This document shows, one piece after another, positions 1 to 33,012 of a DNA stretch of 64,000 nt (position 1 is its first letter; each line of letters begins with the position of its first letter). This DNA is from a phage, in sequence record PV467749.1. One strand, 5' to 3'. A model generated the notes under the pieces. The model was not told the origin of the DNA, did not search any database, and saw nothing but the letters and a program-made list of their open reading frames with translations. Both the position numbers and the translations under genes were made by a program.

Positions 1-176
1 ATGTAATTATACACATTGGCTTCTTGATAGTTAGTTCCCAGTGTAGCTTGAACATAGATTTCATTTAACTTAATAATTTTATCAGTATCTGGTAGTTTTG
101 ATGTGTTAATGGCAAATAACTTCAAAAACAGTCCATTTAAGATTGTTAGGTATTCTTCGTCGGTAATGATTCGCAT
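1..176 (-). CDS. Family A small protein (LGTNYQ motif), 3' end truncated by window edge
   Basis: Manual minus-strand translation: MRIITDEEYLTILNGLFLK...ATLGTNYQEANVYNY; ATG at 174-176; same family as following genes. Confidence 0.45.
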   Translation of the reverse strand, partial: MRIITDEEYLTILNGLFLKLFAINTSKLPDTDKIIKLNEIYVQATLGTNYQEANVYNY

Positions 177-388
177 TTGCATTGGATAAACCTTTTTAGT
201 TCTTTGATGTAATCATTAATATTGCATTCTTGATAGTTAGTCCCTAGGGTAGCTTGAACATAGATTTCACTCATTAGAATATTTTTTTCTTCATCAGGTA
301 AATCTGTGGTCTTTGCTATATACAATTTTAGAATTAAACTACTTAATAGTTCGTGGTATTCACTTGGTGAAAGGATTTTCATTTGCAT
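146..388 (-). CDS. Family A small protein (LGTNYQ motif)
   Basis: Track ORF 80 aa; LGTNYQE motif; tandem overlapping array. Confidence 0.5.
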   Translation of the reverse strand: MQMKILSPSEYHELLSSLILKLYIAKTTDLPDEEKNILMSEIYVQATLGTNYQECNINDYIKELKRFIQCKCESLPTKNT

Positions 389-594
389 GTTCTCAGTACA
401 GATTCTTTAAGTTCATCGATGTAGTCCTCAACGAATTGCTCTTGGAAGTTAGTTCCAACATATAAAAGAACTCTTAAATCTGCTCTAAGTAACTCTTTTT
501 CATCATCATCTATATCAGACAATGTTATGTTTAAGAATTTACTTGTATTAAAGATTAACAATTCTGTTTGTTCACTGTGGCTTAAAATTTTCAT
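379..594 (-). CDS. Family A small protein
   Basis: Track ORF 71 aa; VGTNFQE motif. Confidence 0.5.
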   Translation of the reverse strand: MKILSHSEQTELLIFNTSKFLNITLSDIDDDEKELLRADLRVLLYVGTNFQEQFVEDYIDELKESVLRTCK

Positions 595-802
595 AATCTC
601 TTTTTGCTTTCCTCGCCAAAAGGTACATATACGATTCTTCGTATTGTGCTTGGTAGTTTGTGTTTAAGAGTCGAAACAACTTCTGTTCTGCTAGAACGAG
701 TTGCTTATCTTCATAACAACGATAGCGTATCAACTTTTTGTATTCGATGTTGATTACATCCATTACTATAAGCCCATGTTCATCATCTGTCAAGTGTTTC
801 AT
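572..802 (-). CDS. Family A small protein
   Basis: Track ORF 76 aa; LNTNYQA motif. Confidence 0.5.
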   Translation of the reverse strand: MKHLTDDEHGLIVMDVINIEYKKLIRYRCYEDKQLVLAEQKLFRLLNTNYQAQYEESYMYLLARKAKRDYENFKPQ

Positions 803-1041
803 GCATTTTTTCTTTTTCTTATATGTTTAGTTAAAAGGTATATTAGTTTTCTGATGTATTCTTCTTGGTAGTTTGTTCCTAGGAGTGCAAGAAGCTTTGC
901 TTCAACTAGAGCTAATTGACGTTCTTCAAATGTGTGTTCCAGTATGTACTTTGGGTTTGATTTTTTAGAAATTGCACTATTAGTTTTCATTACAATCTTA
1001 TGATATTCATTAACTGTTAGGATTTTTAAATTCTTGAGCAT
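799..1041 (-). CDS. Family A small protein
   Basis: Track ORF 80 aa; LGTNYQEE motif. Confidence 0.5.
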   Translation of the reverse strand: MLKNLKILTVNEYHKIVMKTNSAISKKSNPKYILEHTFEERQLALVEAKLLALLGTNYQEEYIRKLIYLLTKHIRKRKNA

Positions 1042-1267
1042 GTACCTTTTCCTTTATAGAGAATTTAAGATATCGAAGCATACTTTCAATGTAATACTCT
1101 TGTCTGTCAGTTCCAAGAAAGTACATGAGTTGAATGTATAAAACTTCTGCACTCCTTTCGGCAGGTGACTTGTTTGTGTCGTTTGGAAGTTGATTTGTAA
1201 GTTTTCTGGATTTAATTAATCGTTCTTTTAACTCATCGTCTGTTAAGTATTTCATTTCATTTTGCAT
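1010..1267 (-). CDS. Family A small protein (LGTDRQ variant)
   Basis: Track ORF 85 aa; near-identical to the 1477 copy. Confidence 0.5.
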   Translation of the reverse strand: MQNEMKYLTDDELKERLIKSRKLTNQLPNDTNKSPAERSAEVLYIQLMYFLGTDRQEYYIESMLRYLKFSIKEKVHAQEFKNPNS

Positions 1268-1487
1268 TTACTTTTTCCATAATACTCATTACAAGATGTT
1301 CAATCATATTTTGAACCATAAATTCTTGTTTATCAGTTCCAAGAACGTATTGTAGCTTCTGAAACAATACATTCGCAGACATTTCATATATTGATTGATT
1401 TGGAACGAACTTAAGAGTAATGTTATTGGCTTTTAACATCTTCTCTTGAAATTCTTCATTCGTTAAGTATATCATTTCACTTTGCAT
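1257..1487 (-). CDS. Family A small protein (LGTDKQ variant)
   Basis: Track ORF 76 aa. Confidence 0.5.
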   Translation of the reverse strand: MQSEMIYLTNEEFQEKMLKANNITLKFVPNQSIYEMSANVLFQKLQYVLGTDKQEFMVQNMIEHLVMSIMEKVNAK

Positions 1488-1713
1488 TTATTTTTTCCAT
1501 AATAGTGATTTTAAGATATTTAATTATACGTTCAACGTGATACTCTTGCCTATCAGTTCCAAGAAGGTATGGTAATGACTGGAATAAAACTTCTGCACTC
1601 CTTTCCGCTGGGGTTTGGTTTGGGTTGTGTGGAAGATATTTTGTAAGTTTTTTGGATTTATCTAGTCTTTCTGTTAACTCATCATGTGTTAAGTATATCA
1701 TTTCATTTTGCAT
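1477..1713 (-). CDS. Family A small protein (LGTDRQ variant)
   Basis: Track ORF 78 aa; MQNEMIYLT N-terminus shared with neighbours. Confidence 0.5.
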   Translation of the reverse strand: MQNEMIYLTHDELTERLDKSKKLTKYLPHNPNQTPAERSAEVLFQSLPYLLGTDRQEYHVERIIKYLKITIMEKINAK

Positions 1714-1940
1714 TTAATGTTCCTTACGTAAATTGTCTGGATTAAAAGTGAAATCCATTTTTCTACATATTGGTTTTGATACTGTGTACCTAAGAGGAAC
1801 TGCATTTTAAACTCTGCTTCAAGTTCATATCTCTTTTCTATAGAAAAGCTTAAATGACCATATTCCTTATCGTATCGTCTCATAGCTTCCCCAATTCTAT
1901 CAAATCTTTCTGCTAATCTGATGTTATTCACAATATTCAT
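1698..1940 (-). CDS. Family A small protein (LGTQYQ variant)
   Basis: Track ORF 80 aa. Confidence 0.45.
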   Translation of the reverse strand: MNIVNNIRLAERFDRIGEAMRRYDKEYGHLSFSIEKRYELEAEFKMQFLLGTQYQNQYVEKWISLLIQTIYVRNIKCKMK

Positions 1941-2194
1941 CGATCAGTACACCTCAGTGGTTGGGTCATTTGATAAAAGTACAGCTTACCTTTGATTTCC
2001 AATAGTAACTCCGCGATTAAGCGATTTACTTCTGGCTCTTGATAGTTTGTTCCTAAGAATACACCCATCTTTAACTCACGCATCATAATCATTTTCTTAC
2101 TGTGTTGAATTTCTGGGTTGTGATAGATTGTATTACGTTTGTGTGTAATTTTTGTCATACGCTCGGTATATTCATCTTTACTTAAATTGATCAT
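1937..2194 (-). CDS. Family A small protein
   Basis: Track ORF 85 aa; LGTNYQEP. Confidence 0.5.
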   Translation of the reverse strand: MINLSKDEYTERMTKITHKRNTIYHNPEIQHSKKMIMMRELKMGVFLGTNYQEPEVNRLIAELLLEIKGKLYFYQMTQPLRCTDR

Positions 2195-2427
2195 TTTTTA
2201 TTCTCCAAAGCATCGCATTTATTTTCGATACAATTCATTAGTTCTCTAAGATAGTTTTTTACCTTACCTGCCTGATAGTTCGTCCCCAGGAAGTTGCATA
2301 ACTCTGCTTCTATTATTTTGATTCTTCTGTTATCAGGTTTCAATTTTTTGTTATTGAAGATTTGAATCCTTATATCCCTTGATGCATTTAAACGTTTTTG
2401 ATAATCATGGTAAGATAAATGAATCAT
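2191..2427 (-). CDS. Family A small protein
   Basis: Track ORF 78 aa; LGTNYQAG. Confidence 0.5.
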   Translation of the reverse strand: MIHLSYHDYQKRLNASRDIRIQIFNNKKLKPDNRRIKIIEAELCNFLGTNYQAGKVKNYLRELMNCIENKCDALENKK

Positions 2428-2642
2428 TTACTTTGTATCTCTCTCTTGAGGGCATCAATTAACAACAGTACAGCATTCTCTTGATAGTTTGTTCCTAAGA
2501 CTGAAAGCATCTTAATCTCATTTACTACAATCAACTTCTTTGAGCGTTCAATAATGTTACTATTATAAACGGCGTTACGTGCTGGATAAGTTTTTGCAAG
2601 ACGATCATAATATTCATCTTTACTTAAATTAATCATTTGCAT
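2424..2642 (-). CDS. Family A small protein
   Basis: Track ORF 72 aa; LGTNYQEN. Confidence 0.5.
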   Translation of the reverse strand: MQMINLSKDEYYDRLAKTYPARNAVYNSNIIERSKKLIVVNEIKMLSVLGTNYQENAVLLLIDALKREIQSK

Positions 2643-2851
2643 TTACTTTTGACCTCTTTCAGTAGAGCATCAACCCATATGTCTACATACATTTGTTGAT
2701 AGTTTGTGTCTAATAGTGCACCTACATATAGTTCAGCTACCATTGCGTGCTTTAGGTCAACAGGGATGCTCTTATCAGATTGAATCTTTACCCTTCTGCT
2801 TCCACATGTTTTCAGAAGCTTAACATATTCGTAACCTATTAATTTTCTCAT
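2633..2851 (-). CDS. Family A small protein
   Basis: Track ORF 72 aa; LDTNYQQM. Confidence 0.5.
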   Translation of the reverse strand: MRKLIGYEYVKLLKTCGSRRVKIQSDKSIPVDLKHAMVAELYVGALLDTNYQQMYVDIWVDALLKEVKSKCK

Positions 2852-3063
2852 TCTCTGGATAACACCTTGTTGCGTAAGGCACTTAACAATACGTCAGTGT
2901 AGATGTTTTGATAGTTTGTTCCTACGAAAGCACCCAACTTCATTTCAGCTATTATAACACATTTGTCCTCTTGTGCAATAGACTTGTCTAAAGAAATACT
3001 AACAACTTTCCTTCTTATAGCTTGTAACCTCCAATGATACTGAAACTCATTTAGTGTTATCAT
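2848..3063 (-). CDS. Family A small protein
   Basis: Track ORF 71 aa; VGTNYQNI. Confidence 0.5.
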   Translation of the reverse strand: MITLNEFQYHWRLQAIRRKVVSISLDKSIAQEDKCVIIAEMKLGAFVGTNYQNIYTDVLLSALRNKVLSRE

Positions 3064-3298
3064 TATCTCGTCTCCATATCTCGGTTCTAATGTGTTGACA
3101 TTGTGCTTCGATGAACATATCTATTGATTTGGCAATTGCGTTTTTATCTGTGCCAGTCATCAGTACAAGCATCTCGGCCTCACAGTGAAGTAAACGCATG
3201 ATATCATAGGGTAATATTCCAGATACCGTGTCATAGTGTTTCTGTGCCAGTGTCTGTAATAGTTTACAATACATTTTGTGATTTAGTCTGTGTCGCAT
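3047..3298 (-). CDS. Family A-like small protein (divergent, TGTDKN)
   Basis: Track ORF 83 aa; position and size fit the array, motif degenerate. Confidence 0.4.
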   Translation of the reverse strand: MRHRLNHKMYCKLLQTLAQKHYDTVSGILPYDIMRLLHCEAEMLVLMTGTDKNAIAKSIDMFIEAQCQHIRTEIWRRDNDNTK

Positions 3299-3558
3299 TG
3301 TTTATTCCATTCTTTTTTTTTGGCCTTGATGGTTTTATATTGGATTTGGTTTCTTAATGCTGATAAGTATCGTTGAATGAACAGATCTTGATAGTTTGTT
3401 CCAATGAATTTCATAAGATAAAGTTCACCGTTGATAACATCCACTTCAGGTGCACCATATAAGGCATTGTTTTTTCTAAGGGCATGGATTAAAGAGAATA
3501 GGGCAGTTTGATACTCAACTCCTGATAAAATCTTCATGTTTTGTGAGCAAATAATCAT
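3283..3558 (-). CDS. Family A small protein
   Basis: Track ORF 91 aa; IGTNYQDL. Confidence 0.5.
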   Translation of the reverse strand: MIICSQNMKILSGVEYQTALFSLIHALRKNNALYGAPEVDVINGELYLMKFIGTNYQDLFIQRYLSALRNQIQYKTIKAKKKEWNKQCDTD

Positions 3559-3772
3559 CTAGTTTATCCTGTATAACATTCGTTAATTGTTCGATATATT
3601 CTGTGCAAAACTTATCTTGATATTGAGTCCCCATAAAGTACAGCAACCATAGCTCATTAACTTTAGCTCGCATTTGGTTCCATGTAAGGCTGGGGTCATC
3701 GTAGACTATCCTTGCTATAGGGGTTAGTTTACGGACTATAGTTTCATATTCATCTAGTGTTAAGTGTTTCAT
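3515..3772 (-). CDS. Family A small protein
   Basis: Track ORF 85 aa; MGTQYQDK. Confidence 0.5.
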   Translation of the reverse strand: MKHLTLDEYETIVRKLTPIARIVYDDPSLTWNQMRAKVNELWLLYFMGTQYQDKFCTEYIEQLTNVIQDKLDDYLLTKHEDFIRS

Positions 3773-3987
3773 TTACATTTGTCCCTTATTAGATCAGTGA
3801 GGGCAACTATGTGTGCAACAACATACTCTTCCTGAAAGTTCGTCCCCAGTACAGCCATCATGCGTATATCGGTGGTGTTTATCCTGTGTTCCCTTACACA
3901 TAAACCTTCTGTGTGAGGAAGTGTAAAATATTTGTTTATTGCAGCAACGATAATTTTATTCTTCTCGGAGTTACTTAAATGTTTCAT
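3769..3987 (-). CDS. Family A small protein
   Basis: Track ORF 72 aa; LGTNFQEE. Confidence 0.5.
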   Translation of the reverse strand: MKHLSNSEKNKIIVAAINKYFTLPHTEGLCVREHRINTTDIRMMAVLGTNFQEEYVVAHIVALTDLIRDKCK

Positions 3988-4196
3988 AGTTTACTCCTGA
4001 TATAATTCTGAAGTGCAATTAAGTATTCCCCTACATAATACACCTGAAAGTCTGTATCAAGGAATGCACCCATAAGTAAATCTTTTTCTAATACCCTTGA
4101 TAAGTTAAGGTCTGCATTTGAAAGGTATATAAGTAAGATTTCACCCTGTGCGGAATTGAAACGTTTCTTATATTCTTCTGGTGTTAAAAAAATCAT
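3984..4196 (-). CDS. Family A small protein
   Basis: Track ORF 70 aa; LDTDFQVY. Confidence 0.5.
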   Translation of the reverse strand: MIFLTPEEYKKRFNSAQGEILLIYLSNADLNLSRVLEKDLLMGAFLDTDFQVYYVGEYLIALQNYIRSKL

Positions 4197-4408
4197 AATT
4201 TGCTCCTGATATATTTCTCAAGAGATGACAAATACTTTTCCTCATAATACTTCTGATAGTCTGTTCCTAAGAATGCACCCAAAAGTATTTCATTTTCCAA
4301 TACCTCGGCTAAGTTTAAATCAGAAGTCTCTTCGTATATTATGAGGATTTCAAGTTGTCTGGCAGCGATGCGTTCAGTATATTGATATGAGTTTTCTATA
4401 ATAATCAT
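4193..4408 (-). CDS. Family A small protein
   Basis: Track ORF 71 aa; LGTDYQKY; close paralog of the 3984 copy. Confidence 0.5.
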   Translation of the reverse strand: MIIIENSYQYTERIAARQLEILIIYEETSDLNLAEVLENEILLGAFLGTDYQKYYEEKYLSSLEKYIRSKL

Positions 4409-4614
4409 AATTTACTCTTTATATCTTGAATTAAAAATCGAATCCATTCTTCAACATAATCTTCCTGATGGTTTGTGTTCAGTACAGCCAACATGCGGAT
4501 CTCTGCTCTTGCAACTTCAATTTCAGTTTTAGGAAGGTCTTTGCTGATATCCACCATTAAGTCCATGTATTTCAAGATAAGACCGTATGATTGGGTTCGT
4601 GTTATAGTTTTCAT
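4405..4614 (-). CDS. Family A small protein
   Basis: Track ORF 69 aa; LNTNHQED. Confidence 0.5.
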   Translation of the reverse strand: MKTITRTQSYGLILKYMDLMVDISKDLPKTEIEVARAEIRMLAVLNTNHQEDYVEEWIRFLIQDIKSKL

Positions 4615-4811
4615 TGTTTCCTCGTGGACAATATTTTATTTTTCAATGTATCCATATATTGAATCACCCATCTTTCCTGATAGTTAGTTCCCAAAGTAAT
4701 CAAAAGGTATAACTCCATTCGTTCTACGTGTGTGTCTGTATTATAAATCTTTGTGAAGTTTTTACGTAACAGTTCTTGATAATCTTCTTTATTTAAAATA
4801 CGCATTTTCAT
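4611..4811 (-). CDS. Family A small protein
   Basis: Track ORF 66 aa; LGTNYQER. Confidence 0.5.
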   Translation of the reverse strand: MKMRILNKEDYQELLRKNFTKIYNTDTHVERMELYLLITLGTNYQERWVIQYMDTLKNKILSTRKQ

Positions 4812-5005
4812 AGTCTACCTTTTATGTCCCTTCGTAATTCTTGTAAGTATAGTTCGATATACTTTTCTTGATAGTTAGTTCCTATGAAAAGTTTCATAAC
4901 CAATTCACGCTTATATGCAATACCACGGATATGTGACATATGTAGGATATATGCCATGTTGGATATGAGTGTGTGGTTGTGCTCTTCTTGAGTTAAAATA
5001 CGCAT
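4808..5005 (-). CDS. Family A small protein (first gene of array)
   Basis: Track ORF 65 aa; IGTNYQEK; preceded on minus strand by TTGACT-N16-TATATT and GGAG RBS (~5012-5075). Confidence 0.5.
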   Translation of the reverse strand: MRILTQEEHNHTLISNMAYILHMSHIRGIAYKRELVMKLFIGTNYQEKYIELYLQELRRDIKGRL

Positions 5006-5034
5006 AGGGACTCCATTAAAAATAATATCAATCC

Positions 5035-5075
5035 AATAATATACGATTCATATAAAAAGTCAATAACATTTTATA
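5035..5075 (-). promoter_or_regulatory. Candidate sigma70-like promoter driving the family A array
   Basis: Minus strand reads TTGACT-16nt-TATATT then GGAG and the ATG at 5005. Confidence 0.4.
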
Positions 5076-5254
5076 AGTAATACCCCTTTATCGAAGTCGC
5101 TAAGGTTACCCGCCCTTTAGCCCCCTACGCATTTTGCCATAGTCCAATCCCTTTTTATTCATAAAAGTCAAGGGATTACCTATGCATTTTTTTAACGCTG
5201 AAGTTTAAAAATGCCTTGACTTTTTTATGATTCAGTACTAAATCCTTTTACGCA

Positions 5255-5464
5255 TTAATCCTTCGTTACGCTTACGATTATCTGTGTATCCCCATAGTCC
5301 TGCCATACTTCCACGCCAGCCGTCGCCCTGGTTAGTCGTGCTGTCATCTGCTTAATGGTCTTAGGCTTTAGTGGAACCTGTTGCAGTACTGTACGCATAG
5401 CACTATCGACGTTATCATGTACGCCTGCAATAGTGCCTAGGACGCTGTATACTGTATAGAACAT
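5255..5464 (-). CDS. Hypothetical protein
   Basis: Track ORF 69 aa; GGAGGG RBS before ATG; GC-rich hairpin AGGCCGC/GCGGCCT upstream at ~5496-5516. Confidence 0.45.
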   Translation of the reverse strand: MFYTVYSVLGTIAGVHDNVDSAMRTVLQQVPLKPKTIKQMTARLTRATAGVEVWQDYGDTQIIVSVTKD

Positions 5465-5532
5465 ATGTATGCCCTCCTGATATAGTTAAGGCCGCTACAA
5501 GGCGGCCTATGATGTTTGGTGATGTGTAACGC

Positions 5533-5934
5533 TTACAGTCCTAAGATAGTGCGTGCTTCGTTACGTTCCGTACACAGCTGCATGATGTGAGCAAGTAAGT
5601 CCTTGCTAATGTATCCGGTGTTCATAGCTTCACGAATAGATACATCATAAGCACCGAACCCAGTGCGAACGATACGCACATCATTCAGGTTAGTATTATA
5701 GATACCGCCGAGATCAACGGCTTCGAATACTACATCAACAGAATATTCATTGTTGCCATCGTGGAAGTTTTCCAGTGCAATAGTATTGGAAACCGCCCAA
5801 CGTTTGCAGTTTCCAATGATGCGGCACTGTTCCGGTTGGATAGTGCCATTACTTACAGCGTACTCCAGTGCATCTTTACCAAAAGTCCGAGCCAGTACTA
5901 AAACGTCAGCGAAGGAAGTGATTGAGAAGGTCAT
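5533..5934 (-). CDS. Hypothetical protein
   Basis: Track ORF trimmed to MTFSITSF behind AAGGAG RBS; upstream track residues translate the promoter/hairpin. Confidence 0.55.
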   Translation of the reverse strand: MTFSITSFADVLVLARTFGKDALEYAVSNGTIQPEQCRIIGNCKRWAVSNTIALENFHDGNNEYSVDVVFEAVDLGGIYNTNLNDVRIVRTGFGAYDVSIREAMNTGYISKDLLAHIMQLCTERNEARTILGL

Positions 5935-6023
5935 GATAAAACTCCTTAATTTAGGAGGGAGAACCATTTCCCCCTCTCTATGTAAAACATTATACATGAA
6001 TCTAAGTACTATGCAAGTACTTT

Positions 6024-6356
6024 TTACATTTTGATACCTGGATTCAGGTAGCGGTGAGATCCATACTCTGGATCGGTTTCGGTCCAGTACTGTAAATCGA
6101 TAGTACCTTTCGCGTTAATCTTGTCTACCAGCTTATTCATCTTAGCGTATACTACATCAGCATCGATGCGTTTAAAGCCAGTGGCTTTAGTGAAGTAGTA
6201 GTGATTTGCTTCACTATCATTCAGGATGTACCGAGAACCGTTTGCCGTTTGTGCGATAATGATTGAGTATTCTACGTTACGGTCGAGGCCGTCGATGAAT
6301 ACAGAGGAAACATTAGTACGGATGAATGCTTTAACGATAGCGATTGAAGTAGTCAT
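6024..6356 (-). CDS. Hypothetical protein
   Basis: Track ORF 110 aa. Confidence 0.5.
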   Translation of the reverse strand: MTTSIAIVKAFIRTNVSSVFIDGLDRNVEYSIIIAQTANGSRYILNDSEANHYYFTKATGFKRIDADVVYAKMNKLVDKINAKGTIDLQYWTETDPEYGSHRYLNPGIKM

Positions 6357-6557
6357 TTTGAATCTCCTAACTTTGTGGGCCGTCGCACCATTGCCGCCCT
6401 ACGAGATACATTATCGCAGTACTGATATACTTTGTCAATACTTTTTTATTAATAGTTTTCACCCCACCAGCAGATAGTTACTCACCGTTATTAACTATAT
6501 ATTTTGGATACACCTATGCACCCTGTGGGCTAGTTTTTGTCTATGCGTATATAATAG

Positions 6558-6590
6558 CAAAGGGACTGACCGGAGTCAATCCCTTTTTTT
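6558..6590 (-). terminator. Rho-independent terminator (UCCG loop) with embedded -35
   Basis: AAAGGGACTGAC-CGGA-GTCAATCCC flanked by A-run and T-run; on minus the stem carries TTGACT followed by TATTAT. Confidence 0.55.
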
Positions 6591-6601
6591 ATTCTTTTTT
6601 G

Positions 6602-6802
6602 TTAGATGATTCTCCAATCATCAACGATCATGGTAAGATACCGAACCAGTGATTCGAGTGATTCGTGTTCTCGATAGTCTGCCGCTCCACCAGCGGTACA
6701 AGTACAGCCGATTAAGCCGTTTTGTAGTTCCTGGATCTTTACGTCGATCTGGTTGGCTTTAGCTTCTTTCAGTACTGCAACCAGGGCGATAGCGATAGAC
6801 AT
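6602..6802 (-). CDS. Hypothetical protein
   Basis: Track ORF 66 aa; upstream promoter/leader hairpin module. Confidence 0.45.
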   Translation of the reverse strand: MSIAIALVAVLKEAKANQIDVKIQELQNGLIGCTCTAGGAADYREHESLESLVRYLTMIVDDWRII

Positions 6803-6892
6803 AATGTTTTACTCCAAACTATTGGCGGGAGAACTATTCCCCCGCTCTATGTAAAACATTATACATTACTGGTTAGTACTGTCAAATAGTTT

Positions 6893-7150
6893 TTATGAAA
6901 TATCTTCGATGTAGTCGGCCCATTTCATTTTTTCAGTACTGTCAATGGCGACCGGATTATTTGGATCAAACCATTCACCATCACCGCAATACATACCCAC
7001 GGCTACGGTTTTATAGCCATCCTGGGCAGTACACCACGACATTGCACGATAGATATGGCCTTTAACTGGTTGCAGTACTGGTAACGTTTTATGGTCTTCT
7101 ACGTAGGCCATAGCTTGTGGATTTACCCGATATTGTGTGAACTGATCCAT
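6893..7150 (-). CDS. Hypothetical protein
   Basis: Track ORF 85 aa. Confidence 0.5.
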   Translation of the reverse strand: MDQFTQYRVNPQAMAYVEDHKTLPVLQPVKGHIYRAMSWCTAQDGYKTVAVGMYCGDGEWFDPNNPVAIDSTEKMKWADYIEDIS

Positions 7151-7226
7151 TATGTTTCCCCTTGTAGTTAGTAAAGTTATTACATCAGTACTATCAAGCT
7201 ATGTCAATAGTACTGAAATAAAACTT

Positions 7227-7451
7227 TTAGATTAGATTATTGAGGCCGTCAATGGTAGACTCACCTTCTTCTTTCTCCCATTGTCGGTAGTACTTCCATG
7301 CTTCATGATAGGTGGCGATTAGTTCATCTTTTTGATCCTGGTTACATGCCAGTACTGAATCACGGTGAGCGGTGTTATAGATAGAATCGAATGATTTCTT
7401 CTCTTCTGCCAGGTTAGCTACTTCCCGCATCAGTTCATCAAAGTTAGCCAT
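7227..7451 (-). CDS. Hypothetical protein
   Basis: Track ORF 74 aa; AAGGAG RBS; promoter TTGCAT-17-TATAAT plus leader hairpin at 7470-7526. Confidence 0.55.
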   Translation of the reverse strand: MANFDELMREVANLAEEKKSFDSIYNTAHRDSVLACNQDQKDELIATYHEAWKYYRQWEKEEGESTIDGLNNLI

Positions 7452-7469
7452 TTTATTACTCCTTTTAGT

Positions 7470-7526
7470 GGGGGAGGATATCTCCCCCTATGCAAAACAT
7501 TATACTTTGTTTTAGTTATTATGCAA
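7470..7526 (-). promoter_or_regulatory. Early-type promoter plus 5' leader hairpin (representative of ~30 copies)
   Basis: Minus strand: TTGCAT-17nt-TATAAT, gttttgcata, hairpin GGGGGAG/CTCCCCC, then AAGGAG RBS. Confidence 0.6.
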
Positions 7527-7782
7527 GTACTTTTTTCATATAAACATTAAATTCTACACCGCCGTAACCTTCCACGATGATATGTTTTGCGTTATCACGT
7601 TTGCACATAGTGAAACCGTTGTTGATGTGTTCTGAATTTTCCAGGGCGACATCACCGATAGCGGCACATACAGCACTAATAACAGTATTCCGCAAAGTAC
7701 TGGTATCATTGGCGGTCATAGTAGTTTGCAGTACTACGTTGTCGTATACGTGTGCATTGATAGTGATTTCGATAGTGTTCAT
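7519..7782 (-). CDS. Hypothetical protein
   Basis: Track ORF trimmed to MNTIEITINA; promoter/leader module at 7801-7862. Confidence 0.5.
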   Translation of the reverse strand: MNTIEITINAHVYDNVVLQTTMTANDTSTLRNTVISAVCAAIGDVALENSEHINNGFTMCKRDNAKHIIVEGYGGVEFNVYMKKVLA

Positions 7783-7800
7783 GTTGTATCTCCTGGACTT

Positions 7801-7862
7801 GAGGGGAAACCATTTCCCCCTCTCGATATAAAACATTATACGTTAATCTAACTACAATGCAA
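7801..7862 (-). promoter_or_regulatory. Early-type promoter plus 5' leader hairpin
   Basis: Minus strand: TTGCAT-16nt-TATAAT then hairpin GAGGGG/CCCCTC; plus-strand signature gatataaaacattatacg. Confidence 0.6.
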
Positions 7863-7869
7863 GTACTTT

Positions 7870-8061
7870 TTAAATTTTATTTCCGATATAGTCCGGCATG
7901 TTCTTTTCAGTCATACGCTTTGCTAATGTCTGCATATGGCTTATAGCGTTCAAGGTGTCTTCCTCCAGGGATGAATCGAGATAATCAGGATCATTCTTCA
8001 CCTTGCAATGATTATGATAGCGTAGTACTGCCAGTACTTTTTTAACTTCTTCAACTGTCAT
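7870..8061 (-). CDS. Hypothetical protein
   Basis: Track ORF 63 aa. Confidence 0.45.
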   Translation of the reverse strand: MTVEEVKKVLAVLRYHNHCKVKNDPDYLDSSLEEDTLNAISHMQTLAKRMTEKNMPDYIGNKI

Positions 8062-8330
8062 AATAAGTACTCCACTTCGTTAGCTTTCAGGTTAGTATCA
8101 ATCATCAATGGTTTTTTGTAGTTCACAAAACGATTAGTTTTTTCGATAGCAAATCCCATATAATCCAGCTTACTAACAGTACATTCATTCTTAAAAACTT
8201 CTTTCGCTGCATCGATGGCTGATTGCATGGATAACCGACCATCTAAATTAATGTTTCCAAATGATCCACCAGCAGAAGTAGGATTACCGTTCATATCTTT
8301 AATGATCATAGTAGCGGAGTAGCTGGACAT
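8058..8330 (-). CDS. Hypothetical protein
   Basis: Track ORF 90 aa; start overlaps stop of 7870..8061 gene. Confidence 0.5.
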   Translation of the reverse strand: MSSYSATMIIKDMNGNPTSAGGSFGNINLDGRLSMQSAIDAAKEVFKNECTVSKLDYMGFAIEKTNRFVNYKKPLMIDTNLKANEVEYLL

Positions 8331-8417
8331 AATTTTGTTTCCTTTTATTGGTGGGGAGAACTATTCTCCCCTTGATGTAAACTATTATACAGTACTGATA
8401 TACTTTGTCAAATACTT

Positions 8418-8825
8418 TTATTCGCCCATATAGATTAGATTATCATCGCCTACATAGGGATCGCAAACGTTGATTTCTTCGCAGTACTTAGTGAATATAT
8501 CATCATAGTGACCGATATCACGATCCCAAAAACCAGTGCCGTGACCTTCGCGAGTAAGAAAGAGATCATGACCTGCATGACTATAAGTATAATCAGGATT
8601 ATGGTGTTTTTGTACTGTTTCCATATCTTCACCATGTACAGCAAGGAAACGTGAACATGCAATCACTGCCGCTTGATGGGCTTGCTCTGATAATTCATAA
8701 TCTTCCAGGTATTCGCCGTTCTCATTGTGTACTGTACTGAATTGCATAGCTTCAATGTAACCAGCGACCATTGCAGCATGATTTTTATCGTTGGCGATGG
8801 ACCGAGCTTGATTAGTAGTAGTCAT
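8418..8825 (-). CDS. Hypothetical protein (His/Asp-rich)
   Basis: Track ORF 135 aa. Confidence 0.5.
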   Translation of the reverse strand: MTTTNQARSIANDKNHAAMVAGYIEAMQFSTVHNENGEYLEDYELSEQAHQAAVIACSRFLAVHGEDMETVQKHHNPDYTYSHAGHDLFLTREGHGTGFWDRDIGHYDDIFTKYCEEINVCDPYVGDDNLIYMGE

Positions 8826-8908
8826 GATTTTATTCCTTTTAGTATCGGGGAGAACTATTCTCCCCTTGATGTAAACTATTATACAGTACTGGTATACTTT
8901 GTCAATAC

Positions 8909-25875: not shown

Positions 25876-26082
25876 TTACTTCCTATATATAAGCATTAAC
25901 ATATAGTAGTACTGATTATGCTGTACATTCTCTTTAATATTATAAGGGTCTATAGCAATCTCGGTACATCTGTTAAATGCATATCTATTAAATGCCAGTA
26001 CTATTATAGATCTAATCCATGCTTGGTCAGTCGGTGGTAGTTTACTTATATAGTACTCTTTATAGTTTTTTATGTTCTGCAT
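25876..26082 (-). CDS. Family B small protein
   Basis: Track ORF 68 aa; N-terminal EYY/EFY and hydrophobic C-terminus LMLIYRK. Confidence 0.45.
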   Translation of the reverse strand: MQNIKNYKEYYISKLPPTDQAWIRSIIVLAFNRYAFNRCTEIAIDPYNIKENVQHNQYYYMLMLIYRK

Positions 26083-26093
26083 AGTATACCTTA

Positions 26094-26285
26094 TTATTTC
26101 AAAGTACCATATAGTACTCTTAATAGGAAGTAGTACGTATTAGAGATATCATTAGTAGTTAAAACAATCTTAGTACACATATTAAATTCGTATTGAGTCA
26201 TTGCCAGGGGGATTAAATTGTTAACCCATGCTTGTTCGTTTTCTTTGAGTTTACTTATATAGAAATCTTTATGTTCTTTATTCAT
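26094..26285 (-). CDS. Family B small protein
   Basis: Track ORF 63 aa; MNKEHKDFYISKL. Confidence 0.45.
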   Translation of the reverse strand: MNKEHKDFYISKLKENEQAWVNNLIPLAMTQYEFNMCTKIVLTTNDISNTYYFLLRVLYGTLK

Positions 26286-26487
26286 ATAGGAATAGTATAC
26301 CTATGATGCCGGAGTACATATTAGTACTGTTATTATTGTCGTTTGCGTTTAAGGTCATTTGAATACAATTATTGTAGCATAATCTGCCGAAATATGTATC
26401 AGTACTTAAAGGTGCTGTAGTCCTTAGAAACATTTGTTCTGTGGGGCTGAGGTGTTTGGAGTAGAATTCTTTATGTTCTTTATTCAT
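26278..26487 (-). CDS. Family B small protein
   Basis: Track ORF 69 aa; close paralog of the 26861 copy. Confidence 0.5.
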   Translation of the reverse strand: MNKEHKEFYSKHLSPTEQMFLRTTAPLSTDTYFGRLCYNNCIQMTLNANDNNNSTNMYSGIIGILFLYE

Positions 26488-26492
26488 ATTAG

Positions 26493-26678
26493 TTAGTGTC
26501 TGTATATAAGTAATAGTAAGAATACGTACTGCACCTGTTCATCTTTAGTATTGAGTACTGTACGTATTGCGTCATGGAACAAGAATATAGTACTTGGGTC
26601 ATTAGAATTTAAGGGGTTTACGGGGACGGCGTGTTTGTAGTTCCCTTTAACAAATTGTATATAGTATTCTCTATGCAT
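26493..26678 (-). CDS. Family B small protein
   Basis: Track ORF 61 aa. Confidence 0.45.
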   Translation of the reverse strand: MHREYYIQFVKGNYKHAVPVNPLNSNDPSTIFLFHDAIRTVLNTKDEQVQYVFLLLLIYRH

Positions 26679-26679
26679 A

Positions 26680-26868
26680 TCAGTACCTATATATTAGGGC
26701 GAGAATGTAGTACAGTTTATATGTATTATAATCTGGGTTGATAGCACATAGTGTGTGGTAGTGGAATTGTTTGGTATTTTTCTTATCCTTGATATCTATT
26801 GGGATTTGTGGTATAAGCATTTGGGAGTTTAGATCGAGATGGCTTAAGTAGAATTCTTTGTTATTCAT
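26680..26868 (-). CDS. Family B small protein
   Basis: Track ORF 62 aa. Confidence 0.45.
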   Translation of the reverse strand: MNNKEFYLSHLDLNSQMLIPQIPIDIKDKKNTKQFHYHTLCAINPDYNTYKLYYILALIYRY

Positions 26869-27067
26869 AGAAGAATATTAGTCCCATTACGCCTGAGTAT
26901 TGAATATTTTTGTTATTGTTTTCTAAAGCTTCTAGAGTAATACGTATACAATTATTAAAGCAATCTCTGGCGTGTGGTGTATCTAAACGTAAAGGTGATA
27001 CACTCCTTAGAAACATTTGTTCTGATGCACTGAGGTGTTTGGTGTAAAATTCTTTCTGTTCGTTCAT
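26861..27067 (-). CDS. Family B small protein
   Basis: Track ORF 68 aa; MNEQKEFYTKHLSASEQMFLR. Confidence 0.5.
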   Translation of the reverse strand: MNEQKEFYTKHLSASEQMFLRSVSPLRLDTPHARDCFNNCIRITLEALENNNKNIQYSGVMGLIFFYE

Positions 27068-27077
27068 ATTGGCCTCT

Positions 27078-27266
27078 TTAGTACACGAAAGCTAGGTACA
27101 GTACATGATACAGTACTCGATGATAGCTATCAAAATCTAGTATACATGCTTTAGTGCACATAGTAAAGTACACTTTATCGTTTTGAGCATTGATACCGCG
27201 AGGTTTATCTAATAGATTAGTACTGAGGTACATTGGGAAATATTTTGTGTAGTATTCTTTATGCAT
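27078..27266 (-). CDS. Family B small protein
   Basis: Track ORF trimmed to MHKEYYTKYF. Confidence 0.45.
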   Translation of the reverse strand: MHKEYYTKYFPMYLSTNLLDKPRGINAQNDKVYFTMCTKACILDFDSYHRVLYHVLYLAFVY

Positions 27267-27267
27267 A

Positions 27268-27450
27268 TTAGTACCTGAATATAAGTAGGATAGTGTTATA
27301 TAATTGGTCATAGCTACTACTATTTTCTATACTGCGTTCTATGCAATTATTGAATCCCAGTACTGCCAAATCGTTATCCAGGGGGACTTTATATCTGGCG
27401 TAGTGTTCAAATATACTGGGGAGAAATTGTGTGTAGTATTCTTTGTGCAT
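27268..27450 (-). CDS. Family B small protein
   Basis: Track ORF 60 aa; MHKEYYTQFL. Confidence 0.45.
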   Translation of the reverse strand: MHKEYYTQFLPSIFEHYARYKVPLDNDLAVLGFNNCIERSIENSSSYDQLYNTILLIFRY

Positions 27451-27451
27451 A

Positions 27452-27643
27452 TTAGTACTTATATATTAGTAAAAGGATGTGATACAGTACTCTATTATAG
27501 TCCTCAATATATATCGAGGATTTAGTGCACTGAATGAAGTAGTCTTTTTCGTAGTCTTTTTCTATACTCAATTGTTTTGTTGGTACAAGGTGTTGGAGAT
27601 ACATTGGGAGTTTCTCTATGTAGTATTCTTTGTGGTTATTCAT
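27452..27643 (-). CDS. Family B small protein
   Basis: Track ORF 63 aa. Confidence 0.45.
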   Translation of the reverse strand: MNNHKEYYIEKLPMYLQHLVPTKQLSIEKDYEKDYFIQCTKSSIYIEDYNRVLYHILLLIYKY

Positions 27644-27651
27644 ATTATGTG

Positions 27652-27825
27652 TTATTTCGTGAAAACAAGGGTTAGTACTGCATAGTACAAGTCATACGTA
27701 TCTTTAGGGTTAATAGCACCTTTAATACATTCTTTCATTACTTCATTATAGATAATTTTAGTACTGAATGTATTGGATGTTACTATATCGGAATTAAGGT
27801 ACGAGAGGTAGAATTCTTTATACAT
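27652..27825 (-). CDS. Family B small protein
   Basis: Track ORF trimmed to MYKEFYLSYL. Confidence 0.4.
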   Translation of the reverse strand: MYKEFYLSYLNSDIVTSNTFSTKIIYNEVMKECIKGAINPKDTYDLYYAVLTLVFTK

Positions 27826-28477
27826 AGTTTGAAATATACGTAATGAGGTGATGAAATTTCTTATCAGTACTGATAAGTTCCTGTACATGTTTTGTTAGTT
27901 TGTACGCGTTTTTATAGAGTCCTGGATTATCGATTACAGTACTGTACATGAATTCTTCTTCCTCGGATAATTCTTTGTGTTCTAGTTCTTTGAGGAATTG
28001 CAGTACTGTATCAGTTTCGTTAGTACGTTGCTTTTGGAAGAAGTGCATGTTATCGTGTATTTTTTCTGAACCCATGCAGTACATATCGCCGATTTGGAAT
28101 TGTGCAGTACTGATATCATGGGTGCTATTACAATTCCCGAAGAAGTATACATTCCCGAAAGATAGAATTATAGTGCACGGGATATTATCCATGTGTATAT
28201 AGATAGATGCATTCTTTAGTGCTTTTGTGCTGGTATTAGTACTCAATACTTTTAAATCAGTATTATAGATATTAATAAAAGCAAGAGCTATATTATTTTT
28301 CTTCAAGTACGATTTGAGGTTCTTAGATACGAGAACATTTCTGGATTTTTTCTTTTTATTTCGTTTCTTTAGTACACACGGGTCGTAAGTATATGCTGGT
28401 GTAAAAGATTCTGCTTGAATACTGTTGAGGTATTTAAAGTGCTTAAGGTATTGTTTGCTGTGTGCATTAAGTTTCAT
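27818..28477 (-). CDS. Hypothetical protein (219 aa) embedded in the family B array
   Basis: Track ORF; Lys-rich N-half; CNST motif and size loosely recall the 48973..49623 gene. Confidence 0.5.
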   Translation of the reverse strand: MKLNAHSKQYLKHFKYLNSIQAESFTPAYTYDPCVLKKRNKKKKSRNVLVSKNLKSYLKKNNIALAFINIYNTDLKVLSTNTSTKALKNASIYIHMDNIPCTIILSFGNVYFFGNCNSTHDISTAQFQIGDMYCMGSEKIHDNMHFFQKQRTNETDTVLQFLKELEHKELSEEEEFMYSTVIDNPGLYKNAYKLTKHVQELISTDKKFHHLITYISNYV

Positions 28478-28487
28478 TTGGTTTCCT

Positions 28488-28667
28488 TTATACAGATGCG
28501 AGAGCGAGGATTTCCCTGAAGGGATTATCTTTTGTTAGTGCGTGATGAATGCAGCTATTGAGATTAATATTTTTAGTACTATTAGTTGCCAGGTTGTAGT
28601 ACTTCACGAAGGTGTCGTACATGAAACGGTCTTTAATGCTTATGTGTTCTATATAGTATTCTTGCAT
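28488..28667 (-). CDS. Family B small protein (59 aa, not in track)
   Basis: Manual translation MQEYYIEHISIKDRFMYDTFVKYYNLATNSTKNINLNSCIHHALTKDNPFREILALASV. Confidence 0.4.
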   Translation of the reverse strand: MQEYYIEHISIKDRFMYDTFVKYYNLATNSTKNINLNSCIHHALTKDNPFREILALASV

Positions 28668-28675
28668 ATTATTCC

Positions 28676-28864
28676 TTACATAGAGATGAGTTTCAGTACA
28701 TCAATATACATATAACGTTCAGATGACAGTACACGGGTAGTGATAATCTCAATCGATATATTTTTAATTCCATGTGCAGATGATTGATGGTGCTGAATAA
28801 ATGAGTTGTGCATACTTTGTTCTATGTGGTTTAGTTTATTGAAGTAGTACTCAAAAGTGTTCAT
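28676..28864 (-). CDS. Family B small protein
   Basis: Track ORF 62 aa; C-terminal VLKLISM. Confidence 0.45.
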   Translation of the reverse strand: MNTFEYYFNKLNHIEQSMHNSFIQHHQSSAHGIKNISIEIITTRVLSSERYMYIDVLKLISM

Positions 28865-28871
28865 GTCTACC

Positions 28872-29051
28872 TTAGATTAAGATTAGTTTAAGTACTTCTC
28901 TGTACGTGTACTTTTCGTTTTGTGCTTCTACTGTACACGAGAGTAGATAACGTTTTTTATCTCTTTTGTTCCCGACTGTGTAGTACCTTTGGAATTTATT
29001 ATAGTTGTATCTATCTTTGTGCTGGAGGTTATAGATATAGAATTCTTGCAT
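28872..29051 (-). CDS. Family B small protein (59 aa, not in track)
   Basis: Manual translation MQEFYIYNLQHKDRYNYNKFQRYYTVGNKRDKKRYLLSCTVEAQNEKYTYREVLKLILI. Confidence 0.4.
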   Translation of the reverse strand: MQEFYIYNLQHKDRYNYNKFQRYYTVGNKRDKKRYLLSCTVEAQNEKYTYREVLKLILI

Positions 29052-29059
29052 AGAGTACC

Positions 29060-29245
29060 TTAGATTGCTATCAGTTTGAGTACTTCAATATATGTGCGGT
29101 ACTCTGCTTTAATTAAATTTGTACACACTGTAAGGGAATTTCTTTGTATAAGTTTATTGCCGCTTTTATACGCATTTCTCCACACATAGAGATGAGATCT
29201 TTCAGGCATAGATAGTTTATTTGTATAGTACTCAAATGTGTTCAT
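29060..29245 (-). CDS. Family B small protein
   Basis: Track ORF 61 aa; C-terminal EVLKLIAI. Confidence 0.45.
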   Translation of the reverse strand: MNTFEYYTNKLSMPERSHLYVWRNAYKSGNKLIQRNSLTVCTNLIKAEYRTYIEVLKLIAI

Positions 29246-29253
29246 ATATTACC

Positions 29254-29436
29254 TCAAATAGAGATTAGTTTAAGTACTTCTCTGTATGTGTACTTTTCGT
29301 TTTGTGCATCTCTTGTGCTTGTATATAGGTATCCTCGACGATATTTGTTGCTCCCGTTCTTGTAGTTGAATTCGAACTTATTGTAGATGAATCTATCGCC
29401 AGGCTGTAATTTACTTAAGTACAATTCAATGTTCAT
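29254..29436 (-). CDS. Family B small protein
   Basis: Track ORF trimmed to MNIELYLSKL. Confidence 0.45.
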   Translation of the reverse strand: MNIELYLSKLQPGDRFIYNKFEFNYKNGSNKYRRGYLYTSTRDAQNEKYTYREVLKLISI

Positions 29437-29446
29437 AGTATTCTCT

Positions 29447-29632
29447 TTACATATCAATAAGTTTCAGTACTGCTCTGTACGTGTACTTAGTTGTTAGTGC
29501 TTCTTTTATAGCAATACAGAAGTAATGTTGTTTGTCTCTTATACTACCGCGTTTGTAGTACCATACATTGGAGTTGTGGGTGTACTTGTCCCTGTCGGAT
29601 AGATTTTGGTAATAGTATAATATATGATTCAT
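29447..29632 (-). CDS. Family B small protein
   Basis: Track ORF 61 aa; C-terminal AVLKLIDM. Confidence 0.45.
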   Translation of the reverse strand: MNHILYYYQNLSDRDKYTHNSNVWYYKRGSIRDKQHYFCIAIKEALTTKYTYRAVLKLIDM

Positions 29633-29832
29633 GGTAATGTAATTAGCCTTATTATGTTAAAGTACTCGGTCCCTGGTACACCTTGTAGAATATTATCAAC
29701 TACATTTTCTTGGTGCAGGATTAATACATTCGGTGCGGTTCTTTTAAGGTTTTTTAAAGTACTGTATTCTTGTTTAAGGATGAACTGTACATCTTTAGGG
29801 AGAATATCTAAGTAGTACTGGTGTATGTTCAT
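29629..29832 (-). CDS. Family B small protein
   Basis: Track ORF trimmed to MNIHQYYLDILP. Confidence 0.45.
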   Translation of the reverse strand: MNIHQYYLDILPKDVQFILKQEYSTLKNLKRTAPNVLILHQENVVDNILQGVPGTEYFNIIRLITLP

Positions 29833-29852
29833 AGTTTTCATATAGTACTCTT

Positions 29853-30038
29853 TTAGAACTTAAAGATGAGGTTCATGATAGATAAGTACTTAGTTTCAGG
29901 AAATTGATGTTCTATTGCATAACGTGTCTCCAGTCTGAAGTCAAATTTATAAAAGGGACTATTCATATCCATAGGTTCATTGGGAAATGAATCTCTGTAT
30001 TGTTTGTGCAGCTTACTACAGTAGAATTCTTTATACAT
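29853..30038 (-). CDS. Family B small protein
   Basis: Track ORF 61 aa. Confidence 0.45.
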   Translation of the reverse strand: MYKEFYCSKLHKQYRDSFPNEPMDMNSPFYKFDFRLETRYAIEHQFPETKYLSIMNLIFKF

Positions 30039-30039
30039 A

Positions 30040-30252
30040 TTAGTGCTCGATTAAAAGGGTTAGGATGTAATAGTATTGCATACTTTCTACCCCTTGTACA
30101 GCATTTCTTATTTTATTATTCCTGTACGAGTTCAAGAGTTTAGGACAATGTTTGAAGTTTATATAATTATTTTGTGTATACAGTAGGCTTTCTCGTAGAC
30201 CTTTTGTTGGTAGTGCATCAATGTAGTACTGTTCAATGTTCATAGTGTTCAT
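30040..30252 (-). CDS. Family B small protein
   Basis: Track ORF 70 aa; MNTMNIEQYYIDALP. Confidence 0.45.
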   Translation of the reverse strand: MNTMNIEQYYIDALPTKGLRESLLYTQNNYINFKHCPKLLNSYRNNKIRNAVQGVESMQYYYILTLLIEH

Positions 30253-30476: not shown

Positions 30477-30587
30477 GTACAGTTCTCCTTATATTCCTTA
30501 TATTCCTTCTATAGTACATCAGTACTGAAAGGTTGTCAAGGGTTTTCTTTTTGGGGTAAATATGATATAATGAATAAAGGAGGAAAT

Positions 30588-31724: not shown

Positions 31725-31730
31725 ATACAG

Positions 31731-31787: not shown

Positions 31788-31790
31788 AAT

Positions 31791-32939: not shown

Positions 32940-33012
32940 ATTAATATGCCAGTACTTGAGTACTGGCTTTTCTTTTTGTATTAAATATAGTATAATGAAT
33001 AAGGGAGGAAAT

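Follow-up and report, generated by a model that had tools for sequence, protein, structure and literature searches.

A tandem array of small, diverged paralogs with a predicted four-helix fold beside the terminal repeat of Asteriusvirus phages

The first 5,005 nucleotides of a 64,000-nucleotide stretch of phage DNA (sequence record PV467749.1, here called the window) carry, on the minus strand, a tandem array of small genes with an L-G-T-N-Y-Q signature. It is well supported that this array constitutes an Asteriusvirus-specific, translationally coupled operon of small four-helix paralogs, which lies beside the terminal repeat and whose products have not been detected in virions. The role of these proteins is a more tentative matter. 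We favour, as possible rather than probable, an early-expressed set of small binder proteins directed against host or defence factors.

The listing of open reading frames (ORFs) contains 22 complete ORFs of 65-91 amino acids (aa) between positions 146 and 5005, and a 23rd, from position 182, that is truncated by the edge of the window. A hidden Markov model (HMM) of the family matches exactly 23 of the 431 ORFs of the 64 kb window, all within 1-5005 (E 3e-15 to 3e-28), and the initial annotation, which had claimed at least 23 tandem paralogs of 65-91 aa, is borne out. With leave-one-out models, 21 of the 22 complete copies were recovered (E 1e-11 to 1e-22). At the DNA level, the minus strand of 1-5005 contains 13 instances of the motif coding for G-T-(N/D)-(Y/F)-Q, with 0.09 expected per window. 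A further GTNYQ-coding match at 33195-33209 on the plus strand is located within an RCC1-like ORF and was discarded as a stray hit rather than a family member. The few plus-strand ORFs within the array are short, antisense and without support, and neither an Rfam family nor a tRNA was found in the array region.

The signature had been described as C-terminal and shared by all copies. It is indeed present in most of them, but the ORF at 3047-3298 reads TGTDKN and lacks the Q. The motif is also central rather than C-terminal, occupying residues ~47-53 of ~72 in the loop that joins helices 3 and 4. The ORF at 3047-3298 is matched neither by PHROG 4148 nor by the leave-one-out HMM. An alignment of its orthologues is matched only weakly to the other 21 copies by hhalign, over 71 collinear columns (P 1.3e-4, probability 53%), with its TGTDK paired with their LGTNYQ. 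Its single-sequence AlphaFold model is helical, with similarly placed helix breaks, at a low confidence (predicted local distance difference test, pLDDT, 64). We regard this ORF as probably a highly diverged member of the family.

The genes are tightly packed with overlapping stop and start codons, as first noted, and the overlap is seen at all 21 junctions: 12 are 4-nt ATGA overlaps, and the other nine extend over 10-44 nt. A core Shine-Dalgarno sequence (GGAG, GAGG or AGGA, 5-11 nt upstream) precedes 11 of the 22 starts, compared to a background of 6.7%. That of copy 1, GGAG at 5011-5014 (minus strand), is 5 nt before the ATG. Often the Shine-Dalgarno sequence falls within the codons for the C-terminal I-R-S-K-L of the copy before. 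The C-terminal I-(R/K)-(S/G)-K-L is written as ATC AGG AGC AAA TTA TGA, for example at the junctions 4193-4200 and 3984-3991. These codons are dual-purpose, specifying the peptide as well as a Shine-Dalgarno sequence and the overlapping next start. Since the ribosome-binding site is encoded within the preceding gene, it may account for part of the C-terminal conservation. A natural 154-aa in-frame fusion of two adjacent copy types, those of window 799-1041 and 572-802, is present on an ENA metagenome contig (P0074). At the promoter-distal end of the array in the window (1-2000), the G+C content falls to 31.5%, compared to 35-40% in the terminal repeat.

A sigma70-like promoter is found at 5036-5063 on the minus strand, with a -35 element TTGACT (5063-5058), a 16-nt spacer, a -10 element TATTAT (5041-5036) and AT-rich sequence upstream. 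It is the sole strong site of this type heading the array, and is kept in seven of nine Asteriusvirus loci, including that of phage JNE01 with its otherwise different array. Scans of the sequence inside the array revealed no perfect-consensus promoter and no minus-strand terminator-like site. One internal promoter-like site, at 793-765, arises from the H-L-T-D codons of the family N-terminus and was treated as a chance match. A single promoter at the head of the array, which the initial annotation had placed at ~5040-5075, is plausible.

The promoter is located ~40 nt past the boundary of the terminal repeat, which maps from phage fEgEco12 to window position ~5103. In fEgEco12, restriction digests confirmed a direct terminal repeat of 20,993 bp; 98 bp after its end, at 21,091, the first copy begins. 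In phage vB_Ec-M-J, the first copy follows ~100 bp after a direct terminal repeat annotated as 21.5 kb long. When mapped to the window, the repeat extends from the boundary to about 26.1 kb, and the sign of the GC skew flips at the boundary. Because the boundary falls just before the first copy, the array appears to be the first transcription unit in the unique DNA after the left repeat, pointing inward.

On the strand of the array, the terminal repeat (5104-26100) contains 12 perfect TTGACA-N16/17-TATAAT sites and four TTGACT/TATTAT sites, with 0.2 expected. In most of the perfect promoters the spacer ends with CAGTACTG directly before the -10 element. Three further repeat promoters share an identical 29-nt sequence (6551-6579, 9308-9336 and 12573-12601), with a near-identical fourth at 16259-16287, and at two of these four the -35 element is part of a perfect 12-bp hairpin (AAAGGGATTGACTCCGGTCAGTCCCTTT). 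The genes of the repeat include those for a DksA-like zinc-finger protein and a kinase-like protein; the genes flanking the array are, like the array itself, without an annotatable family. An arrangement of many single-gene units in the repeat, followed by one long array operon, is as well supported as sequence alone allows.

Structure prediction, which had been suggested as a check, gave a confident common fold. The AlphaFold model of copy 14 (1937-2194), calculated with an alignment of the 22 paralogs only, has a pLDDT of 95 and a predicted template modelling score (pTM) of 0.78, and consists of four helices (residues 6-15, 17-24, 31-45 and 52-77). In the model, residue 2 forms a one-residue bridge to the invariant T49. 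Conserved positions are M1, L4, S/T5, E8, Y9, L13, E40, L43, L47, G48, T49, N50, Y51, Q52, E53, V56, Y59/I60, L63, I67 and K70, and T49 and Q52 are near-invariant over all 58 sequence types described below. The N-terminal M-x-x-L-S/T is predicted to clasp onto the near-invariant L-G-T-N-Y-Q, the turn that connects helices 3 and 4. We infer that the motif is structural, acting as a clasp and a helix cap, and is not an active site. Variable positions, also between orthologues, are concentrated in helix 2, in the loop of residues 25-31 and, with i/i+3/i+4 spacing, along the exposed sides of helices 1 and 4. Isoelectric points (pI) of the copies range from 4.5 to 9.95, with more than half being basic (pI 8.5-9.95). 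The grand average of hydropathy is between -0.94 and 0.09, and there are no membrane segments.

The initial annotation could not assign the motif to a known family, and database searches agree: the only family found is PHROG phrog_4148, whose function is unlisted. Copies of the array are already catalogued in this uncharacterised family: of ten that were tested, nine match its profile from end to end (positions 1-72 of 74; E 1e-14 to 1e-26), and phrog_28039 is a subfamily of it. Pfam-A and NCBIfam gave nothing above their curated cut-offs, with weak matches (E >=0.009) that each involve a single member and a different family each time. The PADLOC defence models likewise yielded single-member weak matches only, the best (E 5e-4) from one copy. 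A sequence profile search of the PDB returned an unrelated protein as its best match (E 0.22), a fold search against the PDB gave no informative match, and Foldseek against viral models retrieved Asteriusvirus paralogs only. No match to a helix-turn-helix family and no superposition on helix-turn-helix domains was found. Colicin and pyocin immunity proteins showed neither a sequence nor a fold match; a match of one member to a bacteriocin immunity family (E 0.2) was dismissed as noise. For solved anti-defence proteins in the PDB (anti-CRISPR, Ocr-like and others), the profile search revealed no likeness and the fold searches were uninformative; no dedicated anti-defence library was used.

A profile search of 1.84 billion representative proteins gave 73 matches. 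All but one are family-like proteins of 52-121 aa with an LGT-x-x-Q-type motif; the exception, P0069, is a protein of 2178 aa and the weakest match (E 2.5e-4). In a word-indexed search, matches were confined to phage records, contigs of ~350 kb labelled E. coli and metagenome contigs. Many family members (P0076-P0124) are located on NCBI contigs of ~345-360 kb deposited as 'Escherichia coli', which are whole Asteriusvirus genomes within bacterial assemblies; the complete E. coli genomes of RefSeq contain none of these members. Viral contigs of IMG/VR, scanned with a degenerate form of the motif, gave no matches. In phage CBB, of a sister genus, the terminal repeat is followed by neither the family nor a comparable array. 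The family appears to be restricted to Asteriusvirus-like sequences.

Megablast of 1-6500 found 44 phage records, all of Escherichia, Salmonella or Klebsiella phages, with WPEC3 as the best match (94.7%) and Ecwhy_1, vB_Ec-M-J, PBECO4, G17 and Sharanji among the others. The inspected relatives are jumbo phages of ~310-386 kb, and all but fEgEco12 carry the genus label Asteriusvirus. The window itself belongs to a jumbo coliphage of this genus, in the 121Q/PBECO4/fEgEco12 group. Copy number was compared among relatives, as had been proposed: the family HMM detects 30 copies in fEgEco12, 30 in Ecwhy_1, 29 in vB_Ec-M-J, 31 in PBECO4, 31 in G17, 26 in a Salmonella phage, 25 in 121Q and 21 in JNE01, i.e. 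21-31 per whole array in eight relatives. With ~30 copies in close relatives, the array continues past the window edge, and the window contains approximately its promoter-proximal three quarters.

The paralogs are strongly diverged, with a median pairwise identity of 24% and a maximum of 63%. The latter belongs to the copies starting at 1010 and 1477, which had been called nearly identical in places. Neighbouring copies have a slightly higher identity than random pairs (28.5% vs 24%, permutation p 0.007), and Tandem Repeats Finder detected no DNA-level tandem repeat in 1-6500. When 246 copies from nine genomes were clustered at 65% identity, 58 sequence types were obtained. Eight of the genomes keep most types in the same order, with a few replacements, insertions or deletions, while JNE01 has only two of its 21 array types in common with the window. 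Array orthologues are under purifying selection, since their pooled ratio of nonsynonymous to synonymous divergence (dN/dS) is 0.31-0.39 in five genome comparisons; that of the terminal-repeat genes is 0.13-0.25. It is well supported by these sequence comparisons that the array consists of ancient paralogs, each type being individually retained.

Synonymous divergence (dS) varies from 0.02 to 0.70 between the copies of a single genome pair. A block of four copies (3984-4811) is 97-100% identical to PBECO4 and 73-89% to fEgEco12 and Ecwhy_1, otherwise the closest relatives, and for the other copies this relation is reversed. The array of the window is a recombination mosaic, in which blocks of copies have been swapped between lineages. 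Between the window, fEgEco12 and Ecwhy_1, the latter two sharing 97% average nucleotide identity, orthologous copies have a median identity of 96%, with types 07, 13 and 36 present in some and absent in others. The term hypervariable, applied to the locus at first, does not describe it well: most types keep their order across the genus, dN/dS indicates constraint and other accessory parts are equally diverged. The genes downstream of the array are as diverged as the array or more so, and the same is true of window 44-64 kb. It is the neighbouring terminal repeat that stands out by its conservation: its genes (5255-17181) have 98.5% protein identity between the window and JNE01, which is far more distant outside the repeat (88.6% nucleotide identity over 26% of window 44-64 kb). 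The repeat looks either recently exchanged or unusually constrained.

In the model that we tentatively favour, the host sigma70 RNA polymerase would transcribe the operon from 5063-5036 early in infection, at the same time as the many early single-gene units of the repeat or directly after them. Translation would be coupled by the overlap of stops and starts, so that all paralogs would be made together and in similar amounts. The proteins would remain inside the cell and not be packaged; the phAPEC6 virion list of 62 proteins contains no 7-11 kDa array protein. The conserved residues would provide the scaffold, and the variable exposed faces of helices 1, 2, 3 and 4 would give each paralog its binding specificity. 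As binders or inhibitors of host proteins, their targets would most plausibly be variable factors of anti-phage defence or host takeover, and swapping blocks of copies between phages would alter the range of exploitable hosts. A more specific version, which we consider rather unlikely, is that the ~30 versions of one scaffold each neutralise a different variant of a polymorphic immunity or takeover target of the host, with phages reshuffling blocks by recombination and thereby shifting their host range.

This functional model draws solely on genomic context and the pattern of variation, and several points weigh against it. Our literature search found no RNA sequencing, infected-cell proteomics or functional data for any Asteriusvirus, and timing and co-transcription therefore depend on consensus signals only. 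Mass spectrometry of virions easily overlooks small proteins, which limits the phAPEC6 result. The dN/dS below 1 and the stable synteny give no sign of an arms race, and pooled dN/dS comparisons did not reveal gene-wide positive selection. The array has diverged no more than other accessory regions, and its variable positions may simply be unconstrained surface.

Alternatively, the array could be near-neutral filler, produced by tandem duplication that enlarged the genome for a bigger capsid, with copies that are individually functionless. Such an enlargement was proposed by Hua et al. 2017 (PMC5646251), who, like the phAPEC6 paper (PMC7247149), took the array as evidence that the genome grew by tandem duplication. 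The slight excess of similarity between neighbours (28.5% vs 24%, p 0.007), the variable copy number (21-31) and a dN/dS about twice that of neighbouring genes are consistent with such an origin. However, all 22 complete ORFs are intact and have their own Shine-Dalgarno sites, the dN/dS of 0.31-0.39 signifies purifying selection, and old types keep their order throughout the genus. Although identity has dropped to 24%, the copies still have the invariant T and Q and a common fold that is predicted with confidence. Neutral filler is contradicted by the purifying selection and the integrity of the ORFs, and we consider it very unlikely. A role as small nucleic-acid-binding or regulatory proteins (helix-turn-helix-like factors, RNA polymerase modifiers or a DNA coat) is somewhat less remote, although still doubtful. 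Small helical proteins behind an early-type promoter, next to a repeat that encodes DksA-like zinc-finger and kinase-like proteins, would fit it, as would the basic pI (8.5-9.95) of more than half of the copies, and in our reading there is a loose resemblance to a helix-turn-helix in the L-G-T turn and the helix after it. The searches gave no helix-turn-helix signal, though, and the acidic members would need an explanation of their own.

It is also conceivable that the paralogs form a mixed assembly, with contacts for instance along the long C-terminal helix, and that this assembly is a scaffold or compartment inside the cell that is used in replicating the very large genome. Coupled translation would yield the roughly equal amounts that a mixed assembly calls for, helix 4 has a heptad-like hydrophobic stripe (V56, Y59/I60, L63, I67), and P0074 provides a natural two-copy fusion. 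The stripe is nevertheless accounted for by the core of the monomer in the model (pTM 0.78), and widely varying charge and surface, together with copy sets that differ between phages, are a poor fit to a fixed assembly, which makes this explanation improbable. Little probability is likewise given to competition between phages, in which the proteins would mediate superinfection exclusion or neutralise factors of rival phages or satellites. The evidence cited for the binder set applies here equally, and the repertoire differs most between co-circulating Asteriusvirus lineages that exchange blocks. Against it, the proteins have no likeness to known exclusion proteins and no membrane segments.

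The existence of the array is already known, and it is its anatomy, position, fold and evolution that are described here. Such an array was mentioned by Hua et al. in mBio in 2017 (PMC5646251) and echoed in the phAPEC6 paper (PMC7247149) and a 2026 review of jumbo phages (PMC13282480), in one sentence each, with no genes named and no function proposed. Genes 319-341, 345 and 346 of 121Q are orthologues or paralogs of the window copies (25 HMM matches), and the array of Hua et al. is very probably the same as the one described here. They may have meant, or also counted, a second small-gene array corresponding to 25876-30476. The published description of the copies as 'very similar' is overstated in view of the median identity of 24%.

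Phages whose genomes have long terminal repeats carry early host-takeover blocks at the genome ends. In two of these blocks, the pre-early genes of T5 and the host-takeover module of SPO1, the single genes are unrelated to each other and each has a promoter to itself. Similar to the array, these blocks are located at or next to a terminal repeat, with strong host-type promoters and many small uncharacterised proteins. Their pattern fits the terminal repeat of the window, whereas the array differs in being one operon of paralogs just outside the repeat. The array shares with them the position beside a long terminal repeat and a TTGACT/TATTAT site, from which early timing would follow by inference.

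In eukaryotic viruses, the multigene families (MGF) of African swine fever virus and the host-range families of poxviruses are tandem paralogs near the genome termini that are tied to host range and immune evasion. The array resembles them in its terminal location and in a content that varies by isolate. There is no homology, and the functional parallel is an analogy only. The 'genomic accordions' of poxviruses (cited in PMC13359090) are recent, near-identical amplifications, whereas the array copies are ancient and stably ordered. We found no near-identical DNA copies in the array; differences in copy number between close relatives were found. Colicin immunity proteins are four-helix proteins of ~85 aa, and arrays of orphan immunity genes occur in polymorphic-toxin loci. 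These arrays, like that of Asteriusvirus, consist of tandem genes for small, diverged helical proteins that combine a conserved scaffold with a variable specificity surface. The array differs from them: it matches neither in sequence nor in fold, it has no toxin partner, and its carrier is a phage rather than a bacterium.

Jumbo phages are under development for therapy and most of their genes are unexplained; with ~30 genes, the array represents roughly 5% of the Asteriusvirus gene count. It is among the clearest cases of tandem paralogs retained long-term in a phage. If the copies bind specific host factors, the array would help to set the host range and would constitute a ready-made library of small, stable protein inhibitors. 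If there is indeed a repertoire against polymorphic targets, viruses would have their own counterpart of the immunity-gene arrays of bacteria, and the fold would be a new one among anti-defence proteins. If the array can be lost without effect, it would become a reference case for the growth of giant phage genomes. The question is made testable by the definition of members, promoter, predicted fold, scaffold residues, variable faces and natural variants.

The individual copies, all on the minus strand, are numbered from the promoter, and E values are those of the leave-one-out models unless indicated. Copy 1 (4808-5005, 65 aa, IGTNYQE, E 8e-13; PHROG 4148 E 9e-15) is the first gene of the operon and is 100% identical to its fEgEco12 and Ecwhy_1 orthologue and 58% to that of PBECO4. 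It is followed by copy 2 (4611-4811, 66 aa, LGTNYQE, E 4e-14), which has an ATGA overlap and belongs to the PBECO4-like block (97% identity to PBECO4, 86% to fEgEco12). Copies 3 (4405-4614, 69 aa, LNTNHQE, E 7.5e-16) and 5 (3984-4196, 70 aa, LDTDFQV, E 4e-16) are both 100% identical to PBECO4, and copy 3 matches PHROG 28039 with E 4e-40 and PHROG 4148 with E 1e-14. Between them, copy 4 (4193-4408, 71 aa, LGTDYQK, E 1.7e-15) has 49% identity with copy 5. PHROG 4148 is also matched by copies 6 (3769-3987, 72 aa, LGTNFQE, E 4e-18; PHROG E 7e-14) and 7 (3515-3772, 85 aa, MGTQYQD, E 8e-20; PHROG E 4e-21). Copy 8 (3283-3558, IGTNYQD, E 1e-13) has 91 aa as called, and its family-like start may be an internal ATG at codon 8 (MKILSG). 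The diverged probable member discussed above (3047-3298, 83 aa, MTGTDKN) separates it from copy 10 (2848-3063, 71 aa, VGTNYQN, E 8e-17).

Further from the promoter, copies 11 (2633-2851, 72 aa, LDTNYQQ, E 4e-19; PHROG 4148 E 2e-19) and 12 (2424-2642, 72 aa, LGTNYQE, E 2e-20) are followed by copy 13 (2191-2427, 78 aa, LGTNYQA, E 3e-18; PHROG 4148 E 6e-22). Copy 14 (1937-2194, 85 aa, LGTNYQE, E 3e-22), which has 50% identity with copy 12, is 100% identical to an fEgEco12 protein. After copy 15 (1698-1940, 80 aa, LGTQYQN, E 5e-11) comes a local subfamily of three copies, in which copy 16 (1477-1713, 78 aa, LGTDRQE, E 5e-17) is 54% identical to copy 17 (1257-1487, 76 aa, LGTDKQE, E 1e-14) and 63% to copy 18 (1010-1267, 85 aa, LGTDRQE, E 2e-20; PHROG 4148 E 2e-23). 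The type of copy 17 is found in Ecwhy_1 and G17 and is missing from fEgEco12, vB_Ec-M-J and PBECO4. The remaining complete copies are 19 (799-1041, 80 aa, LGTNYQE, E 4e-17), 20 (572-802, 76 aa, LNTNYQA, E 2e-11), 21 (379-594, 71 aa, VGTNFQE, E 3e-18) and 22 (146-388, 80 aa, LGTNYQE, E 3e-20; PHROG 4148 E 3e-18). Copy 23 (1-182), with the 3' end cut by the window edge, reads MQMRIITDEEY...LGTNYQEANVYNY and matches the family HMM with E 3e-15; its full-length orthologue (P0023, L001 11940-12182) has 80 aa.

Additional paralog groups are found in the vicinity. Downstream of the array in fEgEco12 (locus L003, 14926-23205), there are more tandem groups, with two proteins of ~112 aa, several of 103-124 aa and several of 165-212 aa, none of which has a Pfam match. 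A second tandem array in the window, at 25876-30476 on the minus strand, comprises ~18-20 small ORFs of 60-78 aa with an N-terminal K-E-(F/Y)-Y-x-x-x-L and a C-terminal Y-x-x-x-L-x-L-I. This array lies at the opposite end of the terminal repeat, where it seems to extend across the ~26.1 kb boundary; as a candidate relative of the first array it was rejected (hhalign probability 0.3%) and is unrelated. On the plus strand, from 30570 to 36510 and beyond, tandem paralogs of ~375-414 aa share a common N-terminus, MLPFVRMFDYGN, and contain glycine-rich repeats. In relatives these are labelled 'regulator of chromosome condensation' or 'DNA condensation protein'; phAPEC6 virions contain proteins of this kind.

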